A stretch of DNA of 64,000 nt from Candidatus Methylomirabilales bacterium (GTDB taxonomy: Bacteria > Methylomirabilota > Methylomirabilia > Methylomirabilales > CSP1-5): the NCBI GenBank assembly GCA_046758505.1, contig JBHIAH010000003.1:28178-92177 (forward strand), given 5' to 3'. Within the stretch, counting starts at the first letter, position 1. Each line of letters starts with the position of its first letter. The notes beneath the pieces were generated by a model. That model saw nothing but the letters and a program-made list of their open reading frames with translations, did not search any database and was not told the origin of the DNA. Both the position numbers and the translations under genes were made by a program. Below, in pieces: positions 4,432-52,945 of this stretch.

Positions 4432-5070
4432 TTATCGCTTGCGGGTGGGAACAGTGCTCAGCGCTTCGGCTTCCTGCTTGACCCGCATCTTTCGGAGAAG
4501 GTTAGCATACGAGGAGGTCTGGATGATGCGGTTGAACTGGGTTCGGTAGTTACTCACCAGGCTGACGCCTTCGACCACCACATCGTAGACCTTCCACTGG
4601 CCGGTGCGGCGGATGACTTTGTAATCAATGGGGATATCAATATGCTCCTTCTCGCTGACGATCTTGGTCCGGACGACCCCATACCTTTTATCCGCCTGCT
4701 CCTTGGTATAGAGGATTTCTTGATCCGTGTACGATTCGAGCTTCTTGTGATACGACCGCTCCAAGAGATCGGCAAAAAGGTCCACGAACTCTTTTCGCTC
4801 CTTGGGTGTCCGCTTGCGCCAATGTATGCCGAGGGAGCGCCTCGCCATTTCCGCGAAGTCGAACCGGGTAAAGATGACGGCTCTCAGCTGCGTCCGCCGC
4901 ACCTCCTCCTTCTCGGGGGCCTTCAGTGCCGGGTCCCTCAAGATATCCAGGACCCGGTTAATCGTGGCCTTCACCTGGGCCGTCGGCCCCTCCTGGGCAA
5001 AGGACAAGGTCGAAAAAACCAGGATACCGATCCCGGTAAGGATCAGGGTCTGCCGTGTCACCCTACGCAT
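4432..5070 (-). CDS. MlaC/Ttg2D-family periplasmic lipid-binding protein (HpnM-like), paralog 2
   Basis: 212 aa with a signal peptide. It is clearly paralogous to 995-1630 (FDFAEMARRSLGIHW, DVVVEGVSLVSNYRTQFNRII). A good RBS (AGGGGAGACG) precedes the ATG at 5070. Confidence 0.8.
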   Translation of the reverse strand: MRRVTRQTLILTGIGILVFSTLSFAQEGPTAQVKATINRVLDILRDPALKAPEKEEVRRTQLRAVIFTRFDFAEMARRSLGIHWRKRTPKERKEFVDLFADLLERSYHKKLESYTDQEILYTKEQADKRYGVVRTKIVSEKEHIDIPIDYKVIRRTGQWKVYDVVVEGVSLVSNYRTQFNRIIQTSSYANLLRKMRVKQEAEALSTVPTRKR

Positions 5071-5118: not shown

Positions 5119-6522
5119 CTACCGTACCGAGAACCCCCGCACAGCCTCCCCCGTCGCAAAGGCCAGGTTGGCCAGCGCAATCCGTTGATTGTAGATGGCG
5201 CGAAAATTATCCGTCCGCATCTCGGCATAGGTCTTCAGCGCGTCGGCGAGCTCCCTGGCCTCCCCAATCCCCAGGTCGAAGTTCGCCACGGCCGTCACCA
5301 GCCACCGGCGGGCCTCGCGATAGCCCCGTTTGGTTGTCTCCATGTCCTTCTGGGCTTTTTGCAACTCCAGGTGGGCCTTCCGCACTTGGAGGGGGATCCC
5401 GTGATCGGCAAAATCTCGCTTGTGGAGCAGCTTGGTATATTCCGCCTCGGCCTCGTGGATCTTTCCTTTCGTGATCCCGAAGTCGAAGTGCCACTTCAGG
5501 CCGAGGACGACCCCCCCCTGGGCGTGTTGGAGTGGATCGGTGATGATCGGGACCTCACTGAAGTCCCGGTTGGTGCTCTGAGCCACATCGGCTAAGAACG
5601 CCGCATAAAAGACGGGATACTGGTCCGCGGCGGCGGCGTCGACGAGGGCCTTTCGAGCCTTGATCCCCTCCCGCAGCTGCACGAACTCGGGGCGGTGCTC
5701 CTTGGCCGTTTCGATATAGCTCTCGACGCCCCTGGCTTCTGCCTTGACCGGCACCAGGGTCTTGTCCGCCAATTCGAACTCGACCCTTTCATCAAGCTGG
5801 AGGACCATGCGCAGCGCACCCTTGGCGAGCGTGAGCCCCTCCTCGGCCTCGTCAATGCCCTTGTCCACCTGTGCCCGGAAGGCCCGCAGCTTGTACACGT
5901 CGACCCAGGTGGCCGCGGGGGAGCCGGCCTTCACTTGGCGTTCGGCCTTGTCCAGGGCCTTCTGAAGCTCATCCCGGATCCCATCGACGAACTCCCGAAT
6001 TTCGTGGGCCAGCAGGTACCCGTAGTAGAACTGCTTGACCTGGAGGGCCACCTCGGAGGCCTTCTGATCGACGGCCGCCTCGCTCACGTCGATGCCGCGC
6101 GCTGCCGCCTCGCGGAAGGCGCTGATCTTCCCGAACGTGTACAGGGGCTGGATCAGGGTGATCACGGCCCGGCCGAAGGCGCCGTTGATCACCGGGTCCG
6201 AGGTCTTCGAATTGGACTTGATGGTCCCGTCGCTCCCCCCGGACCTCGCGAGATCCGACTCGGGCGAGGGGCCTCCGAAGATGTTCGCCTCGAGCTGCGC
6301 CCACTTGGCCGCCTCCGCCTGTTGCTGTTTGCTCCGGCTCATATCCACGCCAGCCCGGGCCTCCTTGACTTGGGGGCTCACCTCGAGCGCCCGCTTCACG
6401 GCCTCGTCCAGGCTGATGACCAGCTTCTTCGGTTCACCCGGCGGCTGCCCCTGCGCAGCCGCCGAAAGGGGCGCCAGCACGATCAAGATAAGAGAGATGC
6501 CGGATGCGACAATTGCGGCCAT
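5119..6522 (-). CDS. TolC-like outer-membrane efflux protein
   Basis: 467 aa with a signal peptide (ends LSAAAQG). The body is two repeated long coiled-coil/beta segments typical of the OEP/TolC family. Confidence 0.75.
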   Translation of the reverse strand: MAAIVASGISLILIVLAPLSAAAQGQPPGEPKKLVISLDEAVKRALEVSPQVKEARAGVDMSRSKQQQAEAAKWAQLEANIFGGPSPESDLARSGGSDGTIKSNSKTSDPVINGAFGRAVITLIQPLYTFGKISAFREAAARGIDVSEAAVDQKASEVALQVKQFYYGYLLAHEIREFVDGIRDELQKALDKAERQVKAGSPAATWVDVYKLRAFRAQVDKGIDEAEEGLTLAKGALRMVLQLDERVEFELADKTLVPVKAEARGVESYIETAKEHRPEFVQLREGIKARKALVDAAAADQYPVFYAAFLADVAQSTNRDFSEVPIITDPLQHAQGGVVLGLKWHFDFGITKGKIHEAEAEYTKLLHKRDFADHGIPLQVRKAHLELQKAQKDMETTKRGYREARRWLVTAVANFDLGIGEARELADALKTYAEMRTDNFRAIYNQRIALANLAFATGEAVRGFSVR

Positions 6523-6559: not shown

Positions 6560-7009
6560 TCAGAATTTGCCAAAAATAAAACTGCCGATCAGCTCCTCGA
6601 TATCAATGGGCGGTTCGGTTTCGTGGATTGTGCCTCCGGGGGGGATGAGCTCATCGGACCCCCCGGGACTCAACCGCACATACTTCTCGCCGATGAGTCC
6701 CTTCGTCTTGATAGAGGCGATCGTGTCCTCCTGCAGCTCGACGCCATTGTCGATCCGCAGCGTGACCCGTGCCTGGTAATCGACCAACGCGATGTCCTCG
6801 ACCCGACCGATCTGCACCCCGGCGATCTCCACGGCCGTCCCTTCCTTCAATCCCCCCACGGTGGGGAAGTCGGCGGTCACCGTGTATCCCGAGAGTCCAA
6901 AGACCTGCATCTTGCCCAACCGCACAGAGATATAGGTGAGGGCGAAAATGCCCAGGAGCAGGAACAGACCCACCACCACTTCGAGATCCACCCGTCTCAT
7001 CGTGCGCAC
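6560..7009 (-). CDS. mlaD: MlaD (single MCE-domain) lipid transport protein
   Basis: 149 aa with one N-terminal TM helix followed by an MCE domain (GLKEGTAVEIAGVQIGRVEDI). The ATG at 7000, preceded by GAGGGTG, is an alternative and perhaps better start. Confidence 0.85.
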   Translation of the reverse strand: MRTMRRVDLEVVVGLFLLLGIFALTYISVRLGKMQVFGLSGYTVTADFPTVGGLKEGTAVEIAGVQIGRVEDIALVDYQARVTLRIDNGVELQEDTIASIKTKGLIGEKYVRLSPGGSDELIPPGGTIHETEPPIDIEELIGSFIFGKF

Positions 7010-35372: not shown

Positions 35373-35879
35373 TTACTCGGTGTCGCAAGGCGGGTTTTTG
35401 ACCTTCAGGCTCTCGAGCGTCTGGGAGGTGAGGGCCGTCTCCAGTTTCCAGTGCGGATCCGCCTGGGCGTCCCCCTTCTTCATCAAGAGCCATTCCTTCC
35501 CTGTCCCCCGCCCCTTCATGAACGCCAAGGCGAAGGCGCCCTTGAGTTTTTTTCCCCGAAGTTCAAAGGCGAGCTTCCCGGCCTTGATTCCTTCGAGGGG
35601 ATCCCTCTCGAGCGGGACATAGGTCCCCTCGTCCCAGATGACCACAGGCCCCGCCCCATAGCTCCCCTCGGGGATGATCCCCTCAAAGTCGGCATACACC
35701 AGGGGATGGTCCGCCACCATCACCGCCAGCCGCTTCTCCGCCGGATTCATGGACGGGCCCTTGGGGACCGCCCACGACTTGAGGACCCCCCCCATCTCCA
35801 GCCGGAAATCGTAATGGAGTCGGGTGGCCTGGTGCTCGTGCACCACGAATTTCAGCGCCCGACTCGTTCTCCCACCCAT
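35373..35879 (-). CDS. stand-alone LigD-type 3-phosphoesterase (PE) domain protein
   Basis: 168 aa. KFVVHEHQATRLHYDFRLEMGGVLKSWAVPKGPS...HPLVYADFEGIIPEGSYGAG is the hallmark of the DNA ligase D phosphoesterase domain. No ligase or polymerase domain is attached. Confidence 0.8.
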   Translation of the reverse strand: MGGRTSRALKFVVHEHQATRLHYDFRLEMGGVLKSWAVPKGPSMNPAEKRLAVMVADHPLVYADFEGIIPEGSYGAGPVVIWDEGTYVPLERDPLEGIKAGKLAFELRGKKLKGAFALAFMKGRGTGKEWLLMKKGDAQADPHWKLETALTSQTLESLKVKNPPCDTE

Positions 35880-35959
35880 GAACTACTCCTTGGTCGAGGA
35901 CCGACGACCGGTAACCGTTAGTTGATGAGTGACGACGGAGGACCGTGAACAATGGGGAC

Positions 35960-36062
35960 GTCGAATTTCGGATTGCGAATTTCGAGTTTCTACGAACCGA
36001 GAACTACGAATCACCAATCACCGACCACTACCCACCAACCACGGTTTGTGAACCATGAACCC
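35960..36062. repeat. 103-bp inverted repeat, left arm
   Basis: This is the reverse complement of 41639-41741 with a single mismatch (AACTACGAA vs AACTGCGAA), compared base by base. It is built from concatenated mosaic-repeat modules. Confidence 0.95.
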
Positions 36063-36067
36063 CGATT

Positions 36068-40450: not shown

Positions 40451-41646
40451 GGGCCAAGCCGCCCCATAGCGGTGGCCATCCGGGACAGGGCCTCCTCGAG
40501 ATCGGTGTCGGCGGCGGCATAGGAGAGGCGCAGGTAGCCCTCGCCGCCGGGCCCAAATGCGGTCCCCGGGAGACAAGCCACCCCCCCGTCCTCCAACAGA
40601 TGATCCGCAACGGCCTTGGCAGGTCGGCGAAGGCCCGCCACGTTGGGAAAAGCGTAAAAGGCCCCCGCCGGACGCAGACATCGGATGCCGGGGATCCGGT
40701 TGAGTCCCGTCACCAGCAGGTCACGCCGCCGGTGAAAGGCCTCGACCATCCGGCGAGACGGAGACTGATCCCCCGTCAGCGCCACCACCCCCGCCTTCTG
40801 CACAAAGGTGGCGGTGCACGAGTTGGAGTTGACCATCAGCTTGGCGACCTGCTCTGCCAGGGGGACGGGCATCACCCCGTACCCGAGGCGCCAGCCGGTC
40901 ATCGCATAGCTCTTCGAGAAGCCGTCCAGGAGGATCGTGCGGGGTTTCATCCCCGGCAGGGAGAGGATGCTGGAGGCTTCCCCCTCGTAACAGAACAGGC
41001 GGTAGACCTCGTCCGAGAGGACCCAGAAGTCGAAACGGTCGCTGAGCTCGGCAATGCGCGCGAGGCCTTCTTTTTCGATGATGCCACCGGTCGGATTCTG
41101 AGGAGAGTTGAGGATCAGGAGCCGGGTCCGGGGGGTGACCAGCCGCTCCAGGACGCCGAGGTCGAAACTGAACCCCTTCTCCTCCGTGAGCGGAAGCGGG
41201 ATGGGGGTCCCGCCGGTGAAGCGAATCACTGAGGCGTAGATGGGGAAGCCGGGATCGGGGTAGATTACCTCGTCCCCCGGCTCCACGAGGGCGAGCAGGG
41301 CAAAGAACATGATCGGCTTGGCCCCGGGGGTAATCACCACCTCGGCAGGGTCGACCGGGACCCCCCGGCTCTCGGTGACGAGATGCGCGACCGCCTCGCG
41401 GAGCTCCGGAAGACCCGCCGCCGGACCGTACTTCGTGAACCCCGCATCCAGCGCCCCCTTGGCCGCCTCCACGATGTGGGCCGGGGTGGGAAAGTCCGGC
41501 TCGCCAATCTCGAGGTGGACGATCCGCTGTCCCGCCCGCTCGAGTGCGGACGCCCGGACGAGGACCTCGAAGGCCCCCTCGACCTCGACCCCATCCATCC
41601 GTGCCGCGAATTCTCTCATCCGGCCCGTGTCGCGTTCAGGGTTCAT
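40447..41646 (-). CDS. pyridoxal-phosphate-dependent aminotransferase (class I/II, aspartate aminotransferase-like)
   Basis: 399 aa with PLP-lysine context DGFSKSYAMTGWRLGY and the NSPQNPTG motif. The first 8 nt of the ORF lie inside the right arm of the 103-bp inverted repeat; the ATG at 41619 is an alternative start. Confidence 0.85.
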   Translation of the reverse strand: MNPERDTGRMREFAARMDGVEVEGAFEVLVRASALERAGQRIVHLEIGEPDFPTPAHIVEAAKGALDAGFTKYGPAAGLPELREAVAHLVTESRGVPVDPAEVVITPGAKPIMFFALLALVEPGDEVIYPDPGFPIYASVIRFTGGTPIPLPLTEEKGFSFDLGVLERLVTPRTRLLILNSPQNPTGGIIEKEGLARIAELSDRFDFWVLSDEVYRLFCYEGEASSILSLPGMKPRTILLDGFSKSYAMTGWRLGYGVMPVPLAEQVAKLMVNSNSCTATFVQKAGVVALTGDQSPSRRMVEAFHRRRDLLVTGLNRIPGIRCLRPAGAFYAFPNVAGLRRPAKAVADHLLEDGGVACLPGTAFGPGGEGYLRLSYAAADTDLEEALSRMATAMGRLGP

Positions 41647-41741
41647 GGTTCACAAACCGTGGTTGGTGGGTAGTGGTCGGTGATTGGTGATTCGCAGTTC
41701 TCGGTTCGTAGAAACTCGAAATTCGCAATCCGAAATTCGAC
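41639..41741. repeat. 103-bp inverted repeat, right arm
   Basis: See 35960-36062. There are 102/103 matches in inverted orientation, and the arms are 5.6 kb apart. Confidence 0.95.
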
Positions 41742-41805
41742 ATTACTATTGTCCCCGGTCTCCGGTCATCGTACCGTGAACCGTAAACTCTGAACTGTGA
41801 ACCGG

Positions 41806-43986: not shown

Positions 43987-44009
<23 letters not shown>

Positions 44010-44206
44010 GACTTTCTCTCACGGCAGGCATCTAACCGCACATGGCTGGTGACATACACTTACCCGATTCTGCCGTCCCTCGCAAGCGGAAACGGGAACC
44101 TGTGTAGAGTGCGTGTACTTAGAGGATAAAGGAGGAAAGGACTAAAGGGAGATGCCTTAAGTGATCCATTGGTTTGTGTTCGTTGGTTTGTGTCAGGCAT
44201 GTATTT
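43987..44206. repeat. 220-bp perfect direct repeat, left copy (contains comM start codon, first 8 codons and ~197 bp upstream)
   Basis: Identical base for base to 48637-48856 (offset exactly 4650 bp). Identity breaks at 43986/48636 and at 44207/48857. Confidence 0.95.
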
Positions 44207-44252
44207 CTGGTTCGTGTCCATGGTTCGTGTGGTTCGGAGCAGATGAGCACAC

Positions 44253-44279
44253 ATGAGGGTCAGGTCTTGCAATCACACA
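44253..44279 (+). repeat. REP-like 27-bp repeat, copy 1 (ATGAGGGTCAGGTCTTGCAATCACACA)
   Basis: Identical to 44315-44341. Its 19-bp core AGGGTCAGGTCTTGCAATC is the exact reverse complement of 45202-45220. Confidence 0.9.
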
Positions 44280-44314
44280 AGCACACATGAGAGACACATG
44301 AGGGTCAGAGACAG

Positions 44315-44341
44315 ATGAGGGTCAGGTCTTGCAATCACACA
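44315..44341 (+). repeat. REP-like 27-bp repeat, copy 2 (overlaps transposase stop codon)
   Basis: Identical to 44253-44279. A partial third copy (CATGAGGGTCAGAG) lies at 44297-44310. Confidence 0.9.
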
Positions 44342-45174
44342 TGCTTCCTCTTCCCCGTCTCTTGCACCCTGAGCTTCCGACTCACTGTAGCATAGTGCAC
44401 CCCCAGATGTTCCGCAATCTCTCGCAGTCGATACCCGTACTCCCGATAGGCCGCTCCTATAGCCCTCTCGCCCCGTTGGCGAAAGAGCTGCGCTAAGGTT
44501 GGCCTCACCGGTCTCCACTGCACCCGGGGGATCTCCGGCATCCTCGCCCCCCTCTTGGTGTGTCGCTGGATAAAGGTCGCACTCCCCAGATATATCTGCC
44601 CCTGCAGTTGCTGCCACGGTTGCCGGCCGAGCCCCTCGTGAACAAAGGCCCGATACCGGGTTTGGGCACCGCTCCTCCGTTGCCCAAACTGGCCCAGGAC
44701 CCACGCGACCGTCAAAAATCCAGGCGCCGATGCTAACCCCGCGGTGGCTCGATAACTGCTCCACTTCCATGCGGCCACACTCCGCTTTGCCCCTGCCCGC
44801 ACGGGATTCAACACGACATAGCGACACAGCTCCAACAAGTGCGCTTGCTTTTCTACGACTATTGCCTTATAGCGCCCTTGAAACAGATGGCCCACCCGGC
44901 TGTGCCTCCGATTGAAGGCCTGGGTGTAGACCCCGTTGAGCTGGCGCATCCCCCGAGACAGGGTGGGCTTCAGGGTTTCGATCAGCAGGTGGTAGTGATT
45001 ATCCATGAGGCAATAGGCATGGCAGAGCCACTCGTAGCGAGCGATCACCTCGCCAAGAATGTCGAGAAATGCCTGGCGATCCGTGGCGTCCCGGAAGATG
45101 TTTTGCCGGGCGTTCCCGCGGGCCGTGAGGTGATAGACTGCGCTCGGATATTCAATGCGGAGGGGGCGACTCAT
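44335..45174 (-). CDS. RAYT / IS200-like Y1 (HUH) transposase with C-terminal HTH
   Basis: 279 aa with N-terminal YHLTARGN, the HUH motif DNHYHLLIE, the GHLFQGRYK motif and the catalytic Tyr region CRYVVLNPVRAG. The C-terminal HTH is LREIAEHLGVHYATVSRKL. This architecture fits the REP-associated tyrosine transposase group. Confidence 0.8.
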   Translation of the reverse strand: MSRPLRIEYPSAVYHLTARGNARQNIFRDATDRQAFLDILGEVIARYEWLCHAYCLMDNHYHLLIETLKPTLSRGMRQLNGVYTQAFNRRHSRVGHLFQGRYKAIVVEKQAHLLELCRYVVLNPVRAGAKRSVAAWKWSSYRATAGLASAPGFLTVAWVLGQFGQRRSGAQTRYRAFVHEGLGRQPWQQLQGQIYLGSATFIQRHTKRGARMPEIPRVQWRPVRPTLAQLFRQRGERAIGAAYREYGYRLREIAEHLGVHYATVSRKLRVQETGKRKHV

Positions 45175-45201
45175 GCCAGGAGGGTACCAGGGGATCTGTA
45201 G

Positions 45202-45220
45202 GATTGCAAGACCTGACCCT
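45202..45220 (-). repeat. REP-like core in inverted orientation on the other side of the transposase gene
   Basis: GATTGCAAGACCTGACCCT is the reverse complement of AGGGTCAGGTCTTGCAATC (44256-44274 and 44318-44336). Confidence 0.9.
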
Positions 45221-45271
45221 AAACCTTCTCTAAACCTTCTAAACCTTTGACCCTAAACCTTCCTAAACCTT
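45219..45271 (+). repeat. short tandem array, five copies of (C)TAAACCTT
   Basis: AAACCTT occurs at 45221, 45232, 45241, 45255 and 45265, with 2-7 nt spacers, directly abutting the inverted REP-like core. Confidence 0.8.
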
Positions 45272-45299
45272 CGCCTTCGCGGGGCAGGCGCGGAGGGCG

Positions 45300-46592
45300 T
45301 CAGGATCTATCGAGAAGCGGCGCGAGCAGTGCACGCAGTTGCCGGACGCGCTCCGCGGCTGCCCCCTTTGTCTGCAGCGTCGCCCGAACCACTGGCCGGG
45401 CGATCTCCCACCCATCATAGTGGGAGCAGAGCTCGAGGAGTCGGGCCGCGGCGATCTCCGGATCGGTTGCGACCAACGTCGTCGTTGCCGCGACATCGAT
45501 CGCCGATGCCAGGTCCCCTCCTTTCGCGAGCACGTAGGTCAGGTTCCTGAGGGCGAAGTGGTTGTCCGGATCGGCGTTCACCACCTGCCTGAAGTGCTCC
45601 GCGGCGACTTCGTTCTCACCGCGCCGCATCAACACGTTGCCGAGGTTGTAGCGGGCGCCGGCGTGTGCGGGATCACAAGCCAACGACCTGCGATAGCAGT
45701 GTTCGGCCCTCTCCTCGTCGTCGAGCTCGGTGAAGCTCCGGCCGAGGGAGAAGAAGGCACCGGCGAGCAGCCGCGGCGGATGCAGTTCGGCGTCGTACTG
45801 CTGCAGCGTCTGCAGCGTCATTTTGATCACGTCGACTTCGATCTGGGGGAGGACGGCTCCTCGCTTCTGGCCCCGCATGAGCTCGTCGTAGCCCTCGCGG
45901 ATCTCATCGAGCAGCTCGGCCGGCGGGAGCGGAGGGAGTTGCGCCTCCCGCTGAGCCTGCGTCCGGCTGCTCTCTCCCTCGTCCTTGCCACACCAGCGCT
46001 GCACATCTCGGACCAGCTCTGCTCCCTTTTCCTCGGAGAGAGCCGCGAGCCACGTCTGGACCATGAGCATCCACTGCTCGAGAATGCCCGACGTCATCTC
46101 GCCGAGAGGCGCACAGCGGACCAGTTGCCAGGTCTCGTTGAAAGCCGCCTCGGACGATTGACGATCGACGAAGACTTGCGCCGCGAGGTTCAAGACGGCC
46201 GCGTCCGCCAGATCGGCGGGGCGGGTGAAGGGAAAGCGCTGGTAGAGTCCGAGGGCGCGCGCAGTGGTCTTCGACGCGTCTGGGTGATCGGTGTTGAGCA
46301 GCAGCATACCGGCACCGAAGCAAGCGTGCGCCGCCTCGAGTATGGCCTCCCCGGGGAAGGCCTCCAGGAGCGATGCGGCTCTGAGGTAGGCTTTGATCGC
46401 CTCTTCGGTGTCGCCGGCCTGCCTGAGAAAGTGTGCGAGCGTGATGGTCAGGCGGCCCCGATCCTCGTGATCGTCTGGCTCCATCGATTCGATGAGCTCG
46501 CGTAGGACCGAGGCGCCACGAGCGGGATCTCCGCCGGCTGTAAGAGTCTCGGCCTGCTTCAGCAGGTCGCGCTGGTCGTCGTTGAGTGGCAT
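45300..46592 (-). CDS. TPR-repeat protein (island cargo gene 2)
   Basis: 430-aa all-helical protein. Clear TPR units lie near the C-terminus (AEHCYRRSLACDPAHAGARYNLGNVLMRRGENEVAAEHFRQVVNADPDNHFALRNLTYVLAKGG). It starts 9 nt after the stop of the FRG gene. Confidence 0.7.
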   Translation of the reverse strand: MPLNDDQRDLLKQAETLTAGGDPARGASVLRELIESMEPDDHEDRGRLTITLAHFLRQAGDTEEAIKAYLRAASLLEAFPGEAILEAAHACFGAGMLLLNTDHPDASKTTARALGLYQRFPFTRPADLADAAVLNLAAQVFVDRQSSEAAFNETWQLVRCAPLGEMTSGILEQWMLMVQTWLAALSEEKGAELVRDVQRWCGKDEGESSRTQAQREAQLPPLPPAELLDEIREGYDELMRGQKRGAVLPQIEVDVIKMTLQTLQQYDAELHPPRLLAGAFFSLGRSFTELDDEERAEHCYRRSLACDPAHAGARYNLGNVLMRRGENEVAAEHFRQVVNADPDNHFALRNLTYVLAKGGDLASAIDVAATTTLVATDPEIAAARLLELCSHYDGWEIARPVVRATLQTKGAAAERVRQLRALLAPLLDRS

Positions 46593-46601
46593 CGCACAAT
46601 G

Positions 46602-48305
46602 CTACAACGGCCCGGAGCCCGTGACGAAGGCATCGTCATCCAGCCAGTCGGCCAGCGCGGAGGCCTGCCGGCGGACAGTTTCCTCGTACTCGTCATCCGT
46701 GGGAAAAAGGTCCGGATCGAAGGGGAGGAGAGACGGGTCGAGCACGGCGTAGGCGGGAAGGCGATTCGCATCGGCGAGGATCTGCTCGACGCACTCGAGG
46801 CGCCGCCGGATCTCTCCGGACACCCAGCTATGGTCGCTTGTGAGGTTTTCTGCTGCGATAGGCGGCGGTACAGAGAACGCGTCGGGGGGCAGCTCCAGCC
46901 GCATTCCTGTCTTCTCTTCGAAGTCGCGGCAGAACTCGGCCGCCACCGAGCGGCGGGCGCGGCTGAGCTCCTGTGCAGCGAGCATCGCGTGCTGCCTTCG
47001 TCCCTCCAAATTCTCGGGACTATCCATCAGCCGGCTCGCCTCGACTGCCACCGCCGCCTGCGATCGCAGCTCGTCGCCGGCTTCGCCGAGCGATGGCGAG
47101 GTTTTCAGCGACGCGGTGGGAAAGCGGGGGAGCAGACGGAAGCTCTCGCGGGCGATGAGGGCGCCCGCCGCGTCGAGGCCACGTTGGAGCCGTTTGCCGA
47201 GGGCGTCGCGTCGCTTGAAGCCTTCGATCGACAAAGCCTGCGCCGAAGCCAGATCGTCAGGCGAGCCCCAGGAGACGATCGAGAGCAGTGCCGCGACGCT
47301 GAAGAAGGAGCAACCGAGGTCGATGCGGTCCGGGAAGAGCGCTGATTCGCTCACTCCTGTGGCGGCCTCGAGCTGCTCGCCGGCCTGGGAGGGCAACGTC
47401 AGCTCCTCGGCGACTGGAAGTTGACTCATGTCGCTGAAACAAAGCTCCTCAAGCGGGGTCGGTATGGCCGCGCGGGCGGCGCCCGGGAGCCATTCGGGAG
47501 CGAAGGGGTTGCCATCGAAGTAGATCGGGCACGCTAGCGCCCCACGCTGCGCGTGCGGGCGCCGAACGGTCTGGTCCATCGAGGTCAGGTCGATAATACG
47601 GAGTCCTGGCGTCCGGCTCAGGGGAGCGTCTCGCTTGGCCTCTTCGATGCCTTTCTTAAACGCGTCCCGCAGGTCCCCGGCTAGCATCGCATCGACCCAC
47701 GCGTCGGCGGGGTCGGGCCGCCCGGGGTCGTCGATCTCAAGCAGCAACTCCGTTCGGCGTCGTGCCGGCCAGCGGAAAACTCGACCGGGCTCGCCTGAAG
47801 GACGGAAGGATCCGTCGACCCGCTCGTGAGTGGCGAAGAAGGCCGCTACGACGGCGTCGAAGCAGACATCGACATAGAGGGTGGGCAGCCCATAGTGCTG
47901 CGCGAGAGCGGCGGTCGCCTCGGCTTGAGTCGGCGCGAAGTGGAAAGGACCGGCGGCACCACCGATAGTGGCCGATGGGGAGGGGGCGAGGGGCTGTGGC
48001 AGGACGGGCATCTCGCTCCCGAAAAGCTGCGTTGCCGTGAAGCGACTGGTTCGCTCCATGAGGAGGCGGACGAGACTTGTGTCGAGGGAGTGAAGCCGGT
48101 TTCCGAAGAACTTCCGGTGCGTTGGCCGCAGGTAGCCAGGGAGCACGGTAGGGAACTTCGCCGCCTGGCCCCGGTAGATCCAGGCGTCGCATGGGCAGGG
48201 CTCGTCGGCCCAGGCCAGGAGCTCCTCCAACCATCCCGGGCGCTTCGTCGCGCCGCCTGCCGCATCGTCGTCAGCTCGGCGCAGGCTGCATCGGTTCATC
48301 GTCAT
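46602..48305 (-). CDS. FRG-domain protein with ~300-aa uncharacterised C-terminal region (island cargo gene 1)
   Basis: FRG-domain signatures are present: WIYRGQ...VLPGYLR, ALAQHYGLPTLYVDVCFD..VVAAFFAT and RRPHAQRGAL. The start is set at ATG 48305 (MTMNRCS...); the ORF-track start at 48410 and the ATG at 48299 are alternatives. Confidence 0.7.
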   Translation of the reverse strand: MTMNRCSLRRADDDAAGGATKRPGWLEELLAWADEPCPCDAWIYRGQAAKFPTVLPGYLRPTHRKFFGNRLHSLDTSLVRLLMERTSRFTATQLFGSEMPVLPQPLAPSPSATIGGAAGPFHFAPTQAEATAALAQHYGLPTLYVDVCFDAVVAAFFATHERVDGSFRPSGEPGRVFRWPARRRTELLLEIDDPGRPDPADAWVDAMLAGDLRDAFKKGIEEAKRDAPLSRTPGLRIIDLTSMDQTVRRPHAQRGALACPIYFDGNPFAPEWLPGAARAAIPTPLEELCFSDMSQLPVAEELTLPSQAGEQLEAATGVSESALFPDRIDLGCSFFSVAALLSIVSWGSPDDLASAQALSIEGFKRRDALGKRLQRGLDAAGALIARESFRLLPRFPTASLKTSPSLGEAGDELRSQAAVAVEASRLMDSPENLEGRRQHAMLAAQELSRARRSVAAEFCRDFEEKTGMRLELPPDAFSVPPPIAAENLTSDHSWVSGEIRRRLECVEQILADANRLPAYAVLDPSLLPFDPDLFPTDDEYEETVRRQASALADWLDDDAFVTGSGPL

Positions 48306-48366
48306 TCGCCTTGCCGAGGGAATGCGTGTGATAATGTGTGATAAGAATTCCCTTTTGCGTGAGAGC

Positions 48367-48395
48367 AATCTAACGAGACAGGTGCTTGGTGTCAA
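48367..48395 (-). promoter_or_regulatory. sigma70-like promoter candidate for the FRG-TPR operon
   Basis: The minus strand reads TTGACA (48395-48390), a 17-nt spacer, then TAGATT (48372-48367), about 60 nt upstream of the FRG start. A doubled word GTGTGATAA-T-GTGTGATAA (48327-48345) lies between the promoter and the start. Confidence 0.4.
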
Positions 48396-48636
48396 GGAAA
48401 ATGATACCAAAAGATACGGCGGTTAGGGGAAAAGTACCCCGAGACATGGAGGGTGGGTAGCAGGCGGGCGTTCGGAGGATTATAGGAGCCGTGAGTGGTT
48501 AGGAGCTGGGGTGTGTGGCACCGGACGGGCAAGTTTGACCCCCACCGGCTCATCGAGGCCTTGGAGGGCTTAGGAGTCATGAGGAGGAGTACGGCCAAGC
48601 CGGGGAAGGTAAAGCGTGGAGAAAGTAGGAAGGTTG

Positions 48637-48856
48637 CTACTGAGGACCTTGGCGAGCATGACTTTCTCTCACGGCAGGCATCTAACCGCACATGGCTGGT
48701 GACATACACTTACCCGATTCTGCCGTCCCTCGCAAGCGGAAACGGGAACCTGTGTAGAGTGCGTGTACTTAGAGGATAAAGGAGGAAAGGACTAAAGGGA
48801 GATGCCTTAAGTGATCCATTGGTTTGTGTTCGTTGGTTTGTGTCAGGCATGTATTT
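48637..48856. repeat. 220-bp perfect direct repeat, right copy (orphan comM 5' stub)
   Basis: Identical to 43987-44206. It carries an orphan ATG at 48659 whose reading frame runs into island DNA and stops after 29 codons ([29 protein letters not shown]). Confidence 0.95.
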
Positions 48857-49172
48857 TGGGTAATTTTTGCCTTGCGGCCATCGGCGTGGGGACCTGTCCA
48901 ACGCGTCGGGGTGGCCGATCCATATCCTAGAGGGTAGCCCGGGGGGCGTCAAATAGTCACTATCGCACGCTTGGCACCGAACTTGCTTTTTACCGAGCCT
49001 GTTCCCGCGGGGCCGGCGAACCAGTTGACTTTTACACGGCTCTCGGGTACCGTTTCCCCCGTTCGACAGGTCCTGAGAGGCACCGAGCACGGTGCTGTGA
49101 TCCCGGAGGTTCCATTTCCTTCTGACGACGACACCAGGCCACTCTCATTCAGGATAAAACAGGGAAGTGTCC

Positions 49173-49757
49173 ATGATTCACGTCGGGTCTCGGCTGTGCG
49201 TCGCGTCATACCGTGATCCTGTCTTATCTGCCGACGATATCCTTGTCCTGATTCGCCCCAGTACCGCGTTCGGCGATGGAAACCACGCGACCACGCAGAT
49301 GTGCCTGGAAATGCTCGAATGCGAGATAGGCGGGGGAGAACTCGTATTAGATCTCGGAACCGGATCCGGGGTGCTGGCCATCGCCGCGGCCAGGCTCGGG
49401 GCGCGGAAAGTCATCGCGGTTGATACCGCGCGGCATGCGTGCAAGGCCGCCTCCGTGAACATCCCCACAAACGATGTGGAACAAACGGTTCATGTATTGC
49501 ACGGGTCCGTAGAGGCACTACACCCCGACAAGATATTTGACGTGATCGTCACCAATCTCTACAACGCGGAGCAAGTCAGGGCGGTTTTGCCTGAAATAGC
49601 CCGGAGAGTCCGTGGGCGGGGCATGCTTATTTGTGGGGGAATCTGGATGCGTCGCGACGAAGAAATGATTCGCCTTCTCGCCGATGAACATTTCGCGGTC
49701 CGGACGCGGCGAACCATGGACGATTATGTCACGATTGCCGCGGTGAAAGAGGCCTAA
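49173..49757 (+). CDS. SAM-dependent methyltransferase, PrmA-like (short form)
   Basis: FGDGNHATTQMCLEML and VLDLGTGSGVLAIAAARLGA resemble the ribosomal protein L11 methyltransferase core, but the PrmA N-terminal domain is absent. ATG at 49173 (RBS CAGGGAAG); GTG at 49167 is an alternative. Confidence 0.65.
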   Translation: MIHVGSRLCVASYRDPVLSADDILVLIRPSTAFGDGNHATTQMCLEMLECEIGGGELVLDLGTGSGVLAIAAARLGARKVIAVDTARHACKAASVNIPTNDVEQTVHVLHGSVEALHPDKIFDVIVTNLYNAEQVRAVLPEIARRVRGRGMLICGGIWMRRDEEMIRLLADEHFAVRTRRTMDDYVTIAAVKEA

Positions 49758-50446: not shown

Positions 50447-50518
50447 ATCCTCATGGGTTGCGGGATCTGCACGTTCCCTGGATACCTAACAGTATACGAA
50501 GACTGGGGGGAGGAAACA

Positions 50519-52318
50519 ATGAAGACCTCTGCACTCGTAGTTCTGGGGGCCTTTGGAAGCCTGGTGCTCGGCCAGCTGCCTGTACAGGCACAGCCGCGCA
50601 CGCCCGAAGAGGTCCAACGGCTGTTCGAGTTCACGCGCCCCGCCGAGGCGCAGTTCGTTCCCGGGGAAGTGATCGTGAAGATGAAGCCGACCCGGCGCCT
50701 CAAGAGAAGCGAGGTTTCGCAATTAAAGCTCCAGGCGGTCAGGACGACGTCCGGCGGCGAGATGATCTATCGCATTCCGCCGTCGATCACCAGAACGCTC
50801 TCACCAACCGAGGCGCGCGATCGGACGTTGGCCGTCATCCGTTCGCTCAGCGCGCGACCCGACGTCGCATACGCACAGGCGAACTACATCCTCCACATTG
50901 CCGACAGAACTCCGAACGATCCCCGCTTCCCCGAGCAGTGGCACTACTTCAACAATGGGACCGGTCCCGGGGCGTCCCCGGGAGGGATCAGCCTGCCGAG
51001 GGCCTGGGACACAAGCATCGGAAGCAGTAGCGTCGTCGTCGCAGTCATCGACACCGGCATTCTGCCAAACCACCAGGATATCGCCGGCTCGCCGAACCCG
51101 ATCGCCGGCTTCGACATGATTAGCGATGCGACCATCGCAAACGATGGAAACGGTCGCGACACCGATCCCACGGACCCCGGCGACGCCGTCGCCGCCAACG
51201 AGTGCTTTCCGGGGAGCCCCGCCCTCCCGGATAGCTGGCACGGCACCCATGTGGCCGGGACCGTCGGCGTCGGCAGGACCAACAACGGCGTCGGGGTCGC
51301 CGGCATCAACTGGAACGTGAGGGTCCAGCCGGTGCGCGTGCTGGGCAAGTGCGGGGGGACCATCGCGGACATCAACGACGGCATCCGCTGGGCTGCGGGC
51401 CTCCCCGTGCCCGGCGTGCCGACCAACACGACCCCGGCCCGGGTGATCAACATGAGTCTCGGAGGGACGGGGGCCTGCTCGTTGTCCCCCTCCACACAGG
51501 CGGCGATCAATGACGCGGTGGGGTCGGGGACCGCGGTGGTCGTGGCCGCGGGGAACGAGGCCTCGGACGCGTCAGGTTTTCTCCCCGCAAGCTGCAATAA
51601 CGTGATCACCGTGGCGGCAAGCGACTACCGCGGCCACCTGGTGACCCGCTACTCGAACTTTGGATCCACCGTCGAGATCATGGCGCCCGGCGGTGACGTC
51701 CAGCGAGACGACAATGGGGACGGCAATCCCGACGGGGTCCTCAGCATGGTCCAGGGCGGCTTCGCGTATTACAACGGCACGTCGATGGCGACCCCACACG
51801 TGGCGGGTGTGGCCGCCCTCTGGCTCGCCCAGGACCCCGGGCTGACGCCGGCACAGCTCCTCGCCGCGCTCCAGGGCAACGCGCTGCCCAGGACGGCGAG
51901 CCAATGCCCCCAGCCCTGTGGCGCGGGCCTGCTGAGCGCGCTGCGAGGCCAGTTGCTGGTGAGCCTGGTACTCGATCCCGATAAGACCCTCGATCAGGGC
52001 GAAACGACCACCGCCCGAGCCACGGTTACCATGGCCGGGGCCCCGCAGCCGGGCAAAACGGTGATGTTCAGCACAGCAGACCCCAGCGTTGCCTCCGTCT
52101 CGCCGGCATCCGCCGTGACCGACCCGACCGGTCAGACCCAGGCCACCGTGCGGGGCGAATCAAATGGGGAGACAACGGTGACCGCCGTGGTCAATGGTGC
52201 CAGCGCGTCGACCCCCGTGAAGGTCCCCGACGTGTCTGTGATCGGGGTCATCATCCTCGCACTCGGCGTGGGACTCGCTGCGCTTTTGCGAAAGCGACGC
52301 GCGTCCGCACGACGATAA
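50519..52318 (+). CDS. subtilisin-family (S8) serine protease with Ig-like domain and exosortase-type C-terminal sorting signal
   Basis: The start is set at MKTSALVVLGAFG (RBS GGGGGGAGGAAAC). The catalytic triad contexts are VAVIDTGI, HGTHVAGTVG and GTSMATPHVAG. A Big-like domain precedes the tail VPDVSVIGVIILALGVGLAALLRKRRASARR (motif, TM helix, basic cluster). Confidence 0.85.
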   Translation: MKTSALVVLGAFGSLVLGQLPVQAQPRTPEEVQRLFEFTRPAEAQFVPGEVIVKMKPTRRLKRSEVSQLKLQAVRTTSGGEMIYRIPPSITRTLSPTEARDRTLAVIRSLSARPDVAYAQANYILHIADRTPNDPRFPEQWHYFNNGTGPGASPGGISLPRAWDTSIGSSSVVVAVIDTGILPNHQDIAGSPNPIAGFDMISDATIANDGNGRDTDPTDPGDAVAANECFPGSPALPDSWHGTHVAGTVGVGRTNNGVGVAGINWNVRVQPVRVLGKCGGTIADINDGIRWAAGLPVPGVPTNTTPARVINMSLGGTGACSLSPSTQAAINDAVGSGTAVVVAAGNEASDASGFLPASCNNVITVAASDYRGHLVTRYSNFGSTVEIMAPGGDVQRDDNGDGNPDGVLSMVQGGFAYYNGTSMATPHVAGVAALWLAQDPGLTPAQLLAALQGNALPRTASQCPQPCGAGLLSALRGQLLVSLVLDPDKTLDQGETTTARATVTMAGAPQPGKTVMFSTADPSVASVSPASAVTDPTGQTQATVRGESNGETTVTAVVNGASASTPVKVPDVSVIGVIILALGVGLAALLRKRRASARR

Positions 52319-52333: not shown

Positions 52334-52945
52334 ATGTCCGTGGGTCGACAACTGAATCTTCGCTTCGCGGCGGTGATGGTCGGATTCGTGGGCGTCGTGC
52401 TGCTCACCTACCGCGAGGACATCCTCGGGCCGATCCTTGCGCCCCTAACAACGTGGACGGCGCAGGCCACGCTCGTGTTGCTTCACTGGGCAGGCATGGA
52501 GGCCGCCCGGGCGGGGACGCTCATCGCCCATCCGGACGGCTTCGTCTACGAGATTTACTACCGCTGCACGGGGTTCCTCCCGGTGGCGTTTCTGACCACG
52601 TCGATCCTGGCTTACCCTGGGCCGTTACGACGCAAGTTCGTCGGGCTTGCCGTGGGAGTGCCACTCCTGATCGCGCTCAATCTGGCCCGGCTGGTCCACC
52701 TGTTTTACATTGGCGTGCATCACCGGGCCGCATTCGATCAGGCGCACGCCATCGTGTGGGAAGGGATCCTCATCCTCACGATCATCGGGCTCTGGCTGGG
52801 ATGGATCCGATGGTCCGACGCCCGGGCTACGCGTAGCAGGAGGCCTAATCACTGGGGCGAGCGTCGACCCCAGCGGCCGCTGGGGGGAGCGGACCCCACT
52901 CCTTCTCATGGTTCAGAGAGGAGGTCCGCTCTGCTCACCCGATAA
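52334..52945 (+). CDS. small exosortase/archaeosortase-family transpeptidase
   Basis: 203-aa polytopic protein with candidate catalytic Cys (YYRCTGFLP), Arg (ALNLARLVH) and His (FDQAHAIVWEG) in the order expected for the exosortase family. It starts 16 nt after the protease stop. RBS CCGGAGG. Confidence 0.6.
   Translation: MSVGRQLNLRFAAVMVGFVGVVLLTYREDILGPILAPLTTWTAQATLVLLHWAGMEAARAGTLIAHPDGFVYEIYYRCTGFLPVAFLTTSILAYPGPLRRKFVGLAVGVPLLIALNLARLVHLFYIGVHHRAAFDQAHAIVWEGILILTIIGLWLGWIRWSDARATRSRRPNHWGERRPQRPLGGADPTPSHGSERRSALLTR

Follow-up and report, generated by a model that had tools for sequence, protein, structure and literature searches.

A second copy of the comM promoter region and first codons upstream of an FRG–TPR gene pair in a Candidatus Methylomirabilales genome: a possible duplication in situ

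Introduction

The sequence analysed here, hereafter the window, is a stretch of 64,000 nucleotides of contig JBHIAH010000003.1 (positions 28,178 to 92,177) from a Candidatus Methylomirabilales bacterium, and it contains the gene comM (yifB), the 5' region of which is present twice. The two copies form a perfect 220-bp direct repeat that encloses 4.43 kb of DNA with a Y1 transposase-like gene, a TPR gene and an FRG-domain gene. The locus raises the question of whether a mobile element brought in this block together with its own copy of the beginning of comM, or whether the chromosome copied its own promoter region in front of genes residing there. The analysis presented below favours, with a probability of roughly 0.45, a recent duplication in situ that put a second comM promoter and leader before the FRG–TPR operon; the feature is best explained as something other than the footprint of a transposon or of an integrase-driven island.

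Results

Geometry and content of the repeat

Exact extension in both directions showed that the copies at 43987–44206 and 48637–48856 are identical at 220 of 220 bases, have the same orientation and are offset by 4650 bp, while the flanking bases right outside them differ on either side. No similarity was found past either edge, and the pair is the sole long direct repeat within the window. Each copy comprises 197 nt of comM upstream DNA and the first 23 nt of comM, which encode MLAKVLSS with the eighth codon incomplete. The copies are 4430 bp apart (44207–48636), and Pfam searches assigned three genes to this spacing, all on the comM strand, encoding a Y1_Tnp protein with a helix-turn-helix (HTH) domain, a TPR protein and an FRG-domain protein. 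The initial annotation had described the length, identity and offset of the repeat, the content of its copies, the orientation of the enclosed genes, the intact 511-aa comM on the left copy and a 29-codon orphan stub on the right one, and the exact extension, the Pfam domains and the translations bear out this description. The GC content is 50% in the repeat, 63.8% in the DNA between the copies and 63.0% in the entire window.

Both joints of the distal copy (48856/48857 and 48636/48637) are devoid of microhomology and of extended similarity, and the 310-bp segment that follows the distal copy shows no similarity to comM beyond nt 23. Such blunt illegitimate joints, with neither microhomology nor target duplication, point to recombination or repair rather than to transposase or integrase chemistry. 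Neither Rfam nor tRNA scans yielded a match in the region or anywhere else in the window, and the repeat is thus not a tRNA or known small RNA attachment (att) site. DNA hairpin predictions at the four repeat edges were no better than those for shuffled sequences, with one marginal exception, a quasi-palindrome over the proximal joint of the distal copy (z = −1.9). At this place (48612–48666, minus strand), the first 22 nt past the joint hold ACTTTCTC-CACG, an inverted 12/13 match (p ~0.03) to the comM ribosome-binding region just upstream, and the quasi-palindrome is centred near the joint; it may be a trace of fold-back synthesis at 48636/48637, or chance.

The original and the derived copy

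Relatives have a conserved element of ~158 nt upstream of comM, which is promoter-equipped and folds as a rod-like hairpin. Among the loci fetched for comparison, designated below by L numbers, the full element is present in five (L085:196–355; L081:8121–8280; L084:~568–727; L086:3664–3822, with a partial second copy at 4461–4650; L175:113–270). In L085 and L175 this non-coding element lies directly upstream of comM, and such an arrangement, with the element abutting the gene, is probably the ancestral state. The hairpin is closed by GCCCCAAGUG/CACUUGGGGC, and the element also has a TTGACA-N17-TAnnnT promoter of its own and a U-rich tail. Rfam yielded no match to it at E ≤ 10, so that it may be an undescribed (6S-like?) RNA. 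In the window, both repeat copies contain a remnant of the element, preceded by the same 31 nt. The sharing of the identically truncated remnant and of these 31 nt implies that the duplication postdates a lineage-specific rearrangement of the native comM locus; the initial annotation's view of the event as recent is upheld.

An A/C-rich tract at the distal edge of the proximal copy indicates the direction of copying. Its motif, [AC]C[GA]AAC[CA], occurs 67 times on both strands of the window, and its sole clusters are at 44171–44231 (six motifs) and 48821–48835 (three motifs). Half of the six-motif cluster lies inside the repeat, and the other three motifs are in the 42-nt flank toward the REP motifs and the Y1 gene; in the upstream copy, the tract breaks off where the repeat ends. 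The chance of finding three motifs in the 42-nt flank is ~1e-6 at the window rate and ~1e-3 given the base composition. The passage of the tract across the edge argues that the proximal copy was already continuous with the Y1-side flank when the duplication took place; if they are old contiguous chromosome, both edges of the upstream copy are novel joints, and we infer from this that the upstream (distal) copy is the derived one.

Composition of the enclosed DNA

The 4.43 kb of enclosed DNA is two independent modules, FRG–TPR and the Y1 unit, and not one mobile element, since FRG–TPR has its own borders and occurs without Y1 or comM, and the Y1 unit is self-bounded. The closest copy of the FRG–TPR module, in L091/L092, has 86% nucleotide identity across exactly 48326..45283 and is unrelated outside. 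Only six FRG relatives were found in 5.8 billion proteins, with a TPR gene immediately downstream in each one that was fetched. The pair is conserved in L091–L094, in four other contexts, none of which adjoins Y1 or comM; its neighbours there include IS21 and Mu-type transposase genes (L093) and ordinary genes (L094). In L091, a 93-nt inverted repeat (21–113 and 3806–3898, 75% complementary) is located ~310–330 nt beyond the FRG–TPR borders, and the contigs end soon after it.

The tetranucleotide distance of a 3-kb segment over FRG–TPR (0.323) is the most deviant in the window (mean 0.194, sd 0.036). In the literature (PMC9503650), FRG is counted among the members of the ADP-ribosyltransferase superfamily and predicted to be an NADase-type effector against viruses. 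A PADLOC search revealed similarity of the FRG protein to the candidate defence system PDC-S15 at the domain level only, over ~30–40 residues of the FRG core (best E = 1.3e-8), and an assignment to PDC-S15 was rejected, as the models were not matched over most of their length. To judge from sequence, FRG–TPR is probably a horizontally acquired, defence-like (anti-phage) pair.

The Y1 protein scores 77.8 bits against NCBIfam NF047646 (REP-associated tyrosine transposase, RAYT), the cut-off being 80. Its REP-like motif is found at 44257 and 44319 on the plus strand and at 45202 on the minus strand, and only these gene-adjacent copies were seen in the 64 kb. The family was sampled as the best 80 of at least 551 tblastn-confirmed metagenomic stretches (L095–L174), with proteins 50–76% identical. 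In these best 80 loci, homology to the window ends at ~45219–45222 and ~44314–44319, and a nearly invariant inverted motif, GGGGTCAGGTCTTGCAAT, brackets the Y1 gene, bounding the unit upstream in 68/80 and downstream in 62/80 of them; ComM, FRG and TPR are present in none. Across the Y1+HTH family, a ~24-nt inverted motif, GGGGTCAGGTCTTGCAATCAcACA, is nearly invariant even at 50–65% protein identity. Many contigs of the family end right at the motif, which suggests that the motif is repeated in those genomes, and some related Y1 loci have extra motif copies in their flanks.

Several readings that involve the Y1 gene were considered and rejected. An IS200/IS605-type transposon with cargo does not fit the terminal motif, which brackets only the Y1 gene (45237..44314) and reaches neither 44207 nor 48636, nor does such a cargo unit recur elsewhere, the best 80 Y1 loci being without FRG, TPR and ComM, and the FRG–TPR loci without Y1. 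Y1 as the agent of the duplication was dismissed as well, since its conserved ends enclose its own gene only and the flanks outside have no GTAG-type conserved site. Vertical inheritance of an orthologous Y1 gene beside comM is at odds with protein identities of 41–44% to Y1 of the L081 lineage, where ComM is 87% identical, and the low value indicates a separate arrival upstream of comM. No integrase, resolvase or tns genes were detected in Pfam and NCBIfam scans of the three enclosed genes or in Pfam scans of neighbouring open reading frames (ORFs; ten at 21.5–34.3 kb and five flanking ones at 38.9–42.4 and 49.2–52.3 kb), in agreement with the initial annotation, which had noticed neither tns nor integrase genes.

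The region upstream of comM in related lineages

Searches for a close strain found none: GTDB representative genomes gave a ComM identity of at most 63%, no exact copy of a 32-mer taken from the repeat was found in JGI metagenomes, and exact-protein look-ups of the window ComM and FRG returned no match. The nearest ComM proteins in a large protein collection are 84–89% identical, which corresponds to ~80% in DNA. The gene order downstream of comM is largely conserved (aminotransferase, peptide-binding protein, permeases, LigD-type domain, endonuclease/exonuclease/phosphatase (EEP)-family protein); L175, L176 and L180 have no aminotransferase gene there, and L176 has other genes instead. A defence-like cluster lies downstream of comM in L176 (4751–8028; Uma2 endonuclease, a nucleotidyltransferase/HEPN pair and an N6/N4 DNA methylase), and both sides of comM are thus variable in the clade.

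Upstream of comM, a frameshifted Y1 gene (RAYT unit) was found in L081, L082 and L084, genes for DUF6789 and a methyltransferase in L086–L090, MTHFR in L176 and PilZ in L180. Being different in every lineage, the region upstream of comM is, on this comparison of gene order, a hot spot. The model of the initial annotation predicts an empty site, in the order prmA-like gene, repeat and comM, and this site is in none of the fetched related lineages. No fetched related comM locus has a homolog of the prmA-like gene or of orf216; the subtilase is represented only by a distant paralog (35%) on the downstream side of comM in L081–L083.

A parallel case and a second duplication in the window

A second copy of the comM 5' end was found at only one of 95 comM loci, L086. 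The stub at L086:3865–3912 matches the locus's own 6766–6813 over 48 nt (85%), and the similarity ends at comM nt 20–23, as in the window. This older, decayed stub adjoins the ancestral non-coding element on one side and, on the other, 2.9 kb of unrelated cargo without a recombinase. A single ancient duplication shared by L086 and the window was rejected, as no homology links their post-joint sequences (p = 0.14 and 0.82) and the window repeat includes the lineage-specific truncation of the element. The ComM tree places L086 together with the stub-less L081, and this grouping, along with the non-homologous post-joint DNA, makes two independent events likely. The coincidence of breakpoints would arise by chance with roughly p = 0.03–0.13. 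Further local duplications are present in L086, where 3504–3586 matches 5973–6055 and parts of the non-coding element are repeated.

The window itself contains another duplication of this kind, an inverted repeat at 35931–36065 and 41636–41770 (135 nt at 91%, of which ~105 nt are near-perfect with two mismatches). It copies the upstream region of the aminotransferase gene and its first 8–11 nt (ATGAACCC) to the far end of the operon, 5.57 kb away, where it lies between the DUF4149 and LigD_N genes. The genes within are collinear with those of relatives, which are without the repeat, and no foreign cargo is present. An inverted repeat without cargo implies that duplications of a promoter plus first codons do arise here, which fits a local duplication at comM. 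It could permit inversion of the operon without loss of the promoter.

Promoters and flanking genes

The window ComM is 100% identical to NCBI MFQ5846359.1, and the FRG protein likewise to MFQ5846362.1, from a Candidatus Methylomirabilales metagenome-assembled genome. The distal promoter-like block lies 243 nt plus the 29-codon leader upstream of FRG. On the other side, the divergent neighbour of the distal copy is a prmA-like gene; no remnant of a PrmA N-terminus that would point to truncation of prmA by the joint was detected in the flank of the distal copy. Further along, an exosortase H-like gene (NCBIfam XrtH, 91 bits) adjoins the subtilase gene (window 50453–52318 and 52334–52945), and the C-terminus of the subtilase resembles a PEP-CTERM-type sorting signal; L081 and L082 have kept the exosortase, and the subtilase, orf216 and the prmA-like gene are absent there. 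Low-complexity heptamer-like arrays (CGAAATT, CAGCGAT and ACGAACC types) occur in intergenic DNA, often as inverted pairs around single genes (L175:3816–3840/4792–4816; L081:15540–15573/16641–16674; window 41700–41760).

Table 1. Coordinates of the features at the comM locus (positions in the window).
Feature	Position	Strand	Basis or comment
comM/yifB, intact, 511 aa	42474..44009	-	Pfam ChlI, Mg_chelatase, Mg_chelatase_C
Proximal (L) repeat copy	43987..44206	-	Native comM 5' region; ~95 nt upstream of the ATG conserved in relatives; tract runs on into the upstream flank
Promoter-like TTGCGA-N17-TAAGTG upstream of comM	44057..44085	-	Identical copy at 48707-48735; conserved in five related lineages; putative promoter
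Remnant of the non-coding element, ~50 nt (3' end and downstream spacer)	44126..44175, same at 48776-48825	-	Weak nhmmer match, E = 0.24; by eye CCAATGGATCACTTAAGGCA matches CCAATGGGTCACTTGGGGCA
A/C-rich tract, six [AC]C[GA]AAC[CA] motifs	44171..44237	-	Runs across the distal boundary of the L copy, at 44206/44207
REP-like terminal motif GGGTCAGGTCTTGCAATC, two direct copies	44249..44344	+	Downstream of the Y1 gene
Y1 (HUH) transposase-like gene, C-terminal HTH, RAYT-like	44335..45174	-	Pfam Y1_Tnp, E = 1.5e-14
REP-like motif in inverted orientation, upstream of the Y1 gene	45197..45237	-	Delimits the Y1 unit together with the copy at 44319-44336
FRG–TPR two-gene module	45283..48326	-	Sharp borders by homology to L091/L092
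TPR protein	45300-46592	-	Pfam
FRG-domain protein	46602-48299 (48410 with an upstream TTG start)	-	Pfam
Unique 310-bp segment, distal copy to FRG–TPR module	48327..48636	-	No homolog in any fetched locus
Predicted sigma-70-like promoter TTGACA-17-TAGATT before FRG	48367..48395	-	Consensus scan, 10/12 positions
Orphan stub ORF	48570..48659	-	MLAKVLSS and 21 unrelated codons, stop; 29 codons (translation)
Distal (R) repeat copy	48637..48856	-	Probably derived; both edges would be novel joints; tract ends at 48856/48857
PrmA-like methyltransferase without N-terminal domain	49167..49757	+	Pfam PrmA, profile positions 109-295 only

Discussion

Duplication in situ

The favoured reading supposes a native order in which the prmA-like gene was followed, at some distance, by FRG–TPR, the RAYT unit, the motif tract and comM. 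FRG–TPR would have arrived earlier by horizontal transfer, and the RAYT unit would have been located upstream of comM, a position that another RAYT has in one related lineage. The 220-bp copy, extending from mid-tract to comM nt 23, would then have been set 4.4 kb upstream, just before the FRG–TPR operon. Two routes can be envisaged. In the first, a single event, the fragment would have been captured at a DNA break on the stretch from the prmA-like gene to the FRG promoter region; in the second, two common events would have sufficed, a 4.65-kb tandem duplication with its joint at comM nt 23 and a subsequent deletion of the redundant first unit. A precursor of the locus would be expected to have the junction of GCAAAAATTACCCA to CAACCTTCCTAC and a single repeat copy at comM. 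The direction of copying, the repair mechanism, the promoter activity and the capacity for excision are all deduced here from sequence.

A number of observations weigh against this interpretation. A sibling with the precursor arrangement, in which the flank with the prmA-like gene is joined to the 310-bp segment without an upstream copy, was not found; DNA identity to the closest relatives is no higher than ~80%, and each of them has something different upstream of comM. The argument for the direction of copying hangs on one short tract. It is possible that a circular 4.65-kb molecule was threaded into the chromosome by the assembler. Finally, the older comM stub of L086 ends at the same nt 20–23, beside the ancestral neighbour and with different cargo behind it; L086 looks more like an insertion into comM and hints that a particular site is preferred, which would not be expected of a random local duplication.

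Alternative explanations

The initial annotation had proposed the integration of a circular element with its own copy of the comM 5' region, with a duplication-insertion event as a fallback. The fallback is close to the reading favoured here. The first proposal is supported only in part. The topology of the locus fits it; the enclosed modules are independent of each other, and the tract crosses the edge of the L copy, contrary to what insertion of the 4.43 kb into an intact site with the prmA-like gene, the repeat and comM would give. In its Campbell-type form, which we consider unlikely, a circular 4.65-kb element would have entered a chromosome with the order prmA-like gene, repeat and comM by a single homologous crossover, having acquired the 220 bp earlier, through imprecise excision from a chromosomal position upstream of comM. 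The arrangement is exactly the one that single-crossover insertion-duplication yields, the perfect identity fits a conspecific origin, and the region upstream of comM is a hot spot, different in all seven lineages examined; the atypical composition of the FRG–TPR region is also in line with it, and the continuity of the tract is compatible if the element carried the tract and the repeat internally. However, at least three events are then needed (a recipient tract cut exactly at the repeat edge, imprecise excision and integration), the would-be element is pieced together from independent modules and has, apart from the self-bounded RAYT, no gene for replication, transfer or recombination, and neither the empty site nor a second occurrence of the unit was found.

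An assembly effect appears quite unlikely. It would require that a chromosome with a single repeat and a separate 4.65-kb circle, or a strain variant sharing the 220 bp, were merged by the assembler. The source is a metagenome-assembled genome, and a perfect 220-bp repeat makes a de Bruijn loop, the four junctions of which fit either topology. The identical FRG protein (P0127) is encoded on five Logan contigs, the longest of which (4428 bp) is 2 bp shorter than the 4430-bp unique segment, and it is suggestive of independent assemblies also breaking at the repeat; but other Logan contigs of the organism are similarly short (one of them, of 4813 bp, does not match the inverted-repeat spacing), and the agreement in length could be a coincidence. 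Moreover, the joint of comM nt 23 to the 310-bp segment must exist in real molecules anyway, so that a unit with a comM 5' copy stands, the motif tract ties the Y1-side flank to the chromosomal comM region, and the 4.65-kb circle would have no recognisable replication gene.

Still less likely is site-specific integration at comM nt 20–23 by a recombinase or nickase acting in trans. The window and L086 would then be integrase-less (CIME-like) remnants, each island arriving with a substitute for the comM promoter and first codons, in the manner of dusA-specific islands. The homology of the L086 stub ends at nt 20–23, beside the ancestral upstream neighbour, and the cargo that follows is unrelated; the grouping of L086 with the stub-less L081 makes two independent events likely; and an outer stub with a restored gene matches the dusA islands (PMC4482086). 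Yet there is no integrase in either insert or nearby, the 220-bp perfect repeat far exceeds the 21-bp semi-conserved dusA att, the post-joint sequences of the window and L086 are unrelated, and there are only two cases among 95 comM loci. A chance match of the boundaries has a probability of roughly 0.03–0.13, and another duplication in the window also ends in a gene's first codons; the tract, in turn, argues that the gene-proximal copy is native and not island-borne.

A long target-site duplication, in which opposite-strand nicks 220 bp apart would have been followed by end-joining of a linear 4.43-kb fragment and filling-in of the overhangs, agrees with the blunt joints without microhomology, with the presence in the window of a gene for a LigD-type 3'-phosphoesterase domain (35373–35879) and with the inverted 105–135-nt duplication at the neighbouring operon, which is what a staggered-break inversion is expected to give, but it is highly improbable, as it predicts a new joint between the Y1-side flank and the proximal copy, where the tract crosses (~1e-6, or ~1e-3 by composition).

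A more general suggestion, which is doubtful, is that comM nt 20–23 is a recurrent breakpoint in Methylomirabilales, defined by an enzyme or by structure, at which accessory (defence-type) DNA is placed and the gene is rescued by a duplicated promoter and leader without an element-encoded integrase. Candidates for the agent are a recombinase of the host and the RAYT-type HUH nickase encoded next to comM, which would act on promoter DNA in its unwound state, and the same process might be the source of the inverted duplication of a promoter plus first codons 6 kb away.

Consequences of the arrangement

The comM gene is intact and keeps its own putative promoter. FRG–TPR, perhaps with Y1, would gain a second, comM-type promoter and a 29-codon leader upstream of FRG's own predicted promoter. 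The initial annotation had pointed out that the repeats should allow excision by homologous recombination, and two perfect 220-bp direct repeats are indeed good candidates: they would offer ample substrate for RecA-type deletion, releasing a 4.65-kb circle, or for tandem amplification. Deletion would lose FRG–TPR and Y1 and leave one repeat and an intact comM. If the duplication did arise in situ, the locus would be a very young case of promoter propagation, in which a housekeeping promoter came to stand before a horizontally acquired, probably anti-phage pair, and this pair would become a cassette that the cell can lose or amplify by homologous recombination. The locus is also a caution that a repeat-flanked block beside a transposase gene is not always a mobile element. 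The reused breakpoint at nt 20–23 and two duplications of a promoter plus first codons within 13 kb could mean that an undescribed rearrangement process operates in the phylum.

Comparison with known systems

The Tn7-like AbaR/Tn6022 elements of Acinetobacter use the same gene family as a hot spot for accessory DNA. The locus, unlike them, has no tnsABCDE-type genes, Tn7 ends or 5-bp target duplication, and the DNA lies upstream of or at nt 23 of comM and not in the gene body, with comM intact. A comM-targeting transposon of this type was rejected, there being no tns genes and the flanks being the 220-bp repeat. Islands at dusA (Farrugia et al. 2015, PMC4482086) are alike in that DNA is placed at the 5' end of a housekeeping gene, with an outer stub and a second 5' end, although the tract suggests that here the gene-proximal 5' end is native rather than island-borne; they encode a tyrosine integrase by the target and have a 21-bp semi-conserved att, whereas the locus has no integrase and a 220-bp perfect repeat. 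With neither a tyrosine or serine integrase among the ORFs scanned nor short imperfect att repeats of ~20 bp, an integrase-driven island of the dusA type was likewise discarded.

RAYT/REPIN systems (Bertels and Rainey 2011, PMC3116915, PMC3337134) resemble the locus, where the Y1 gene is single-copy and has inverted short motifs on its flanks and the NCBIfam match is near the threshold, and differ from it in that here the motif is not an obvious palindrome, its copies are only gene-adjacent in 64 kb and the protein has a C-terminal HTH. This likeness accounts for the Y1 unit and not for the 220-bp repeat. Laboratory insertion-duplication produces the same topology, a promoter with a stub, foreign DNA, and a promoter with the intact gene, the duplication being the homologous fragment; in the window, by contrast, no vector-like circle can be recognised; resident modules make up the enclosed mosaic, and the continuity of the tract speaks for an origin in situ.

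Putative mobile promoters (Matus-Garcia, Nijveen and van Passel 2012, PMC3488235) are defined as upstream regions of at least 50–100 nt that are at least 80% identical and stand before non-homologous coding sequences in one genome. Duplicated promoters before unrelated genes are documented, and two-copy families within a single genome have been ascribed to homologous or non-homologous recombination (PMC3488235). The locus falls within this definition, with a similar promoter region before the non-homologous comM and FRG (197 nt and 23 nt, 100% identical). It differs from the described cases in that the copied DNA is 220 nt long and identical throughout, includes the start codon and 7–8 codons, and lies 4.4 kb from its source in direct orientation, so that the pair of copies makes the genes between them a unit that could be excised or amplified.

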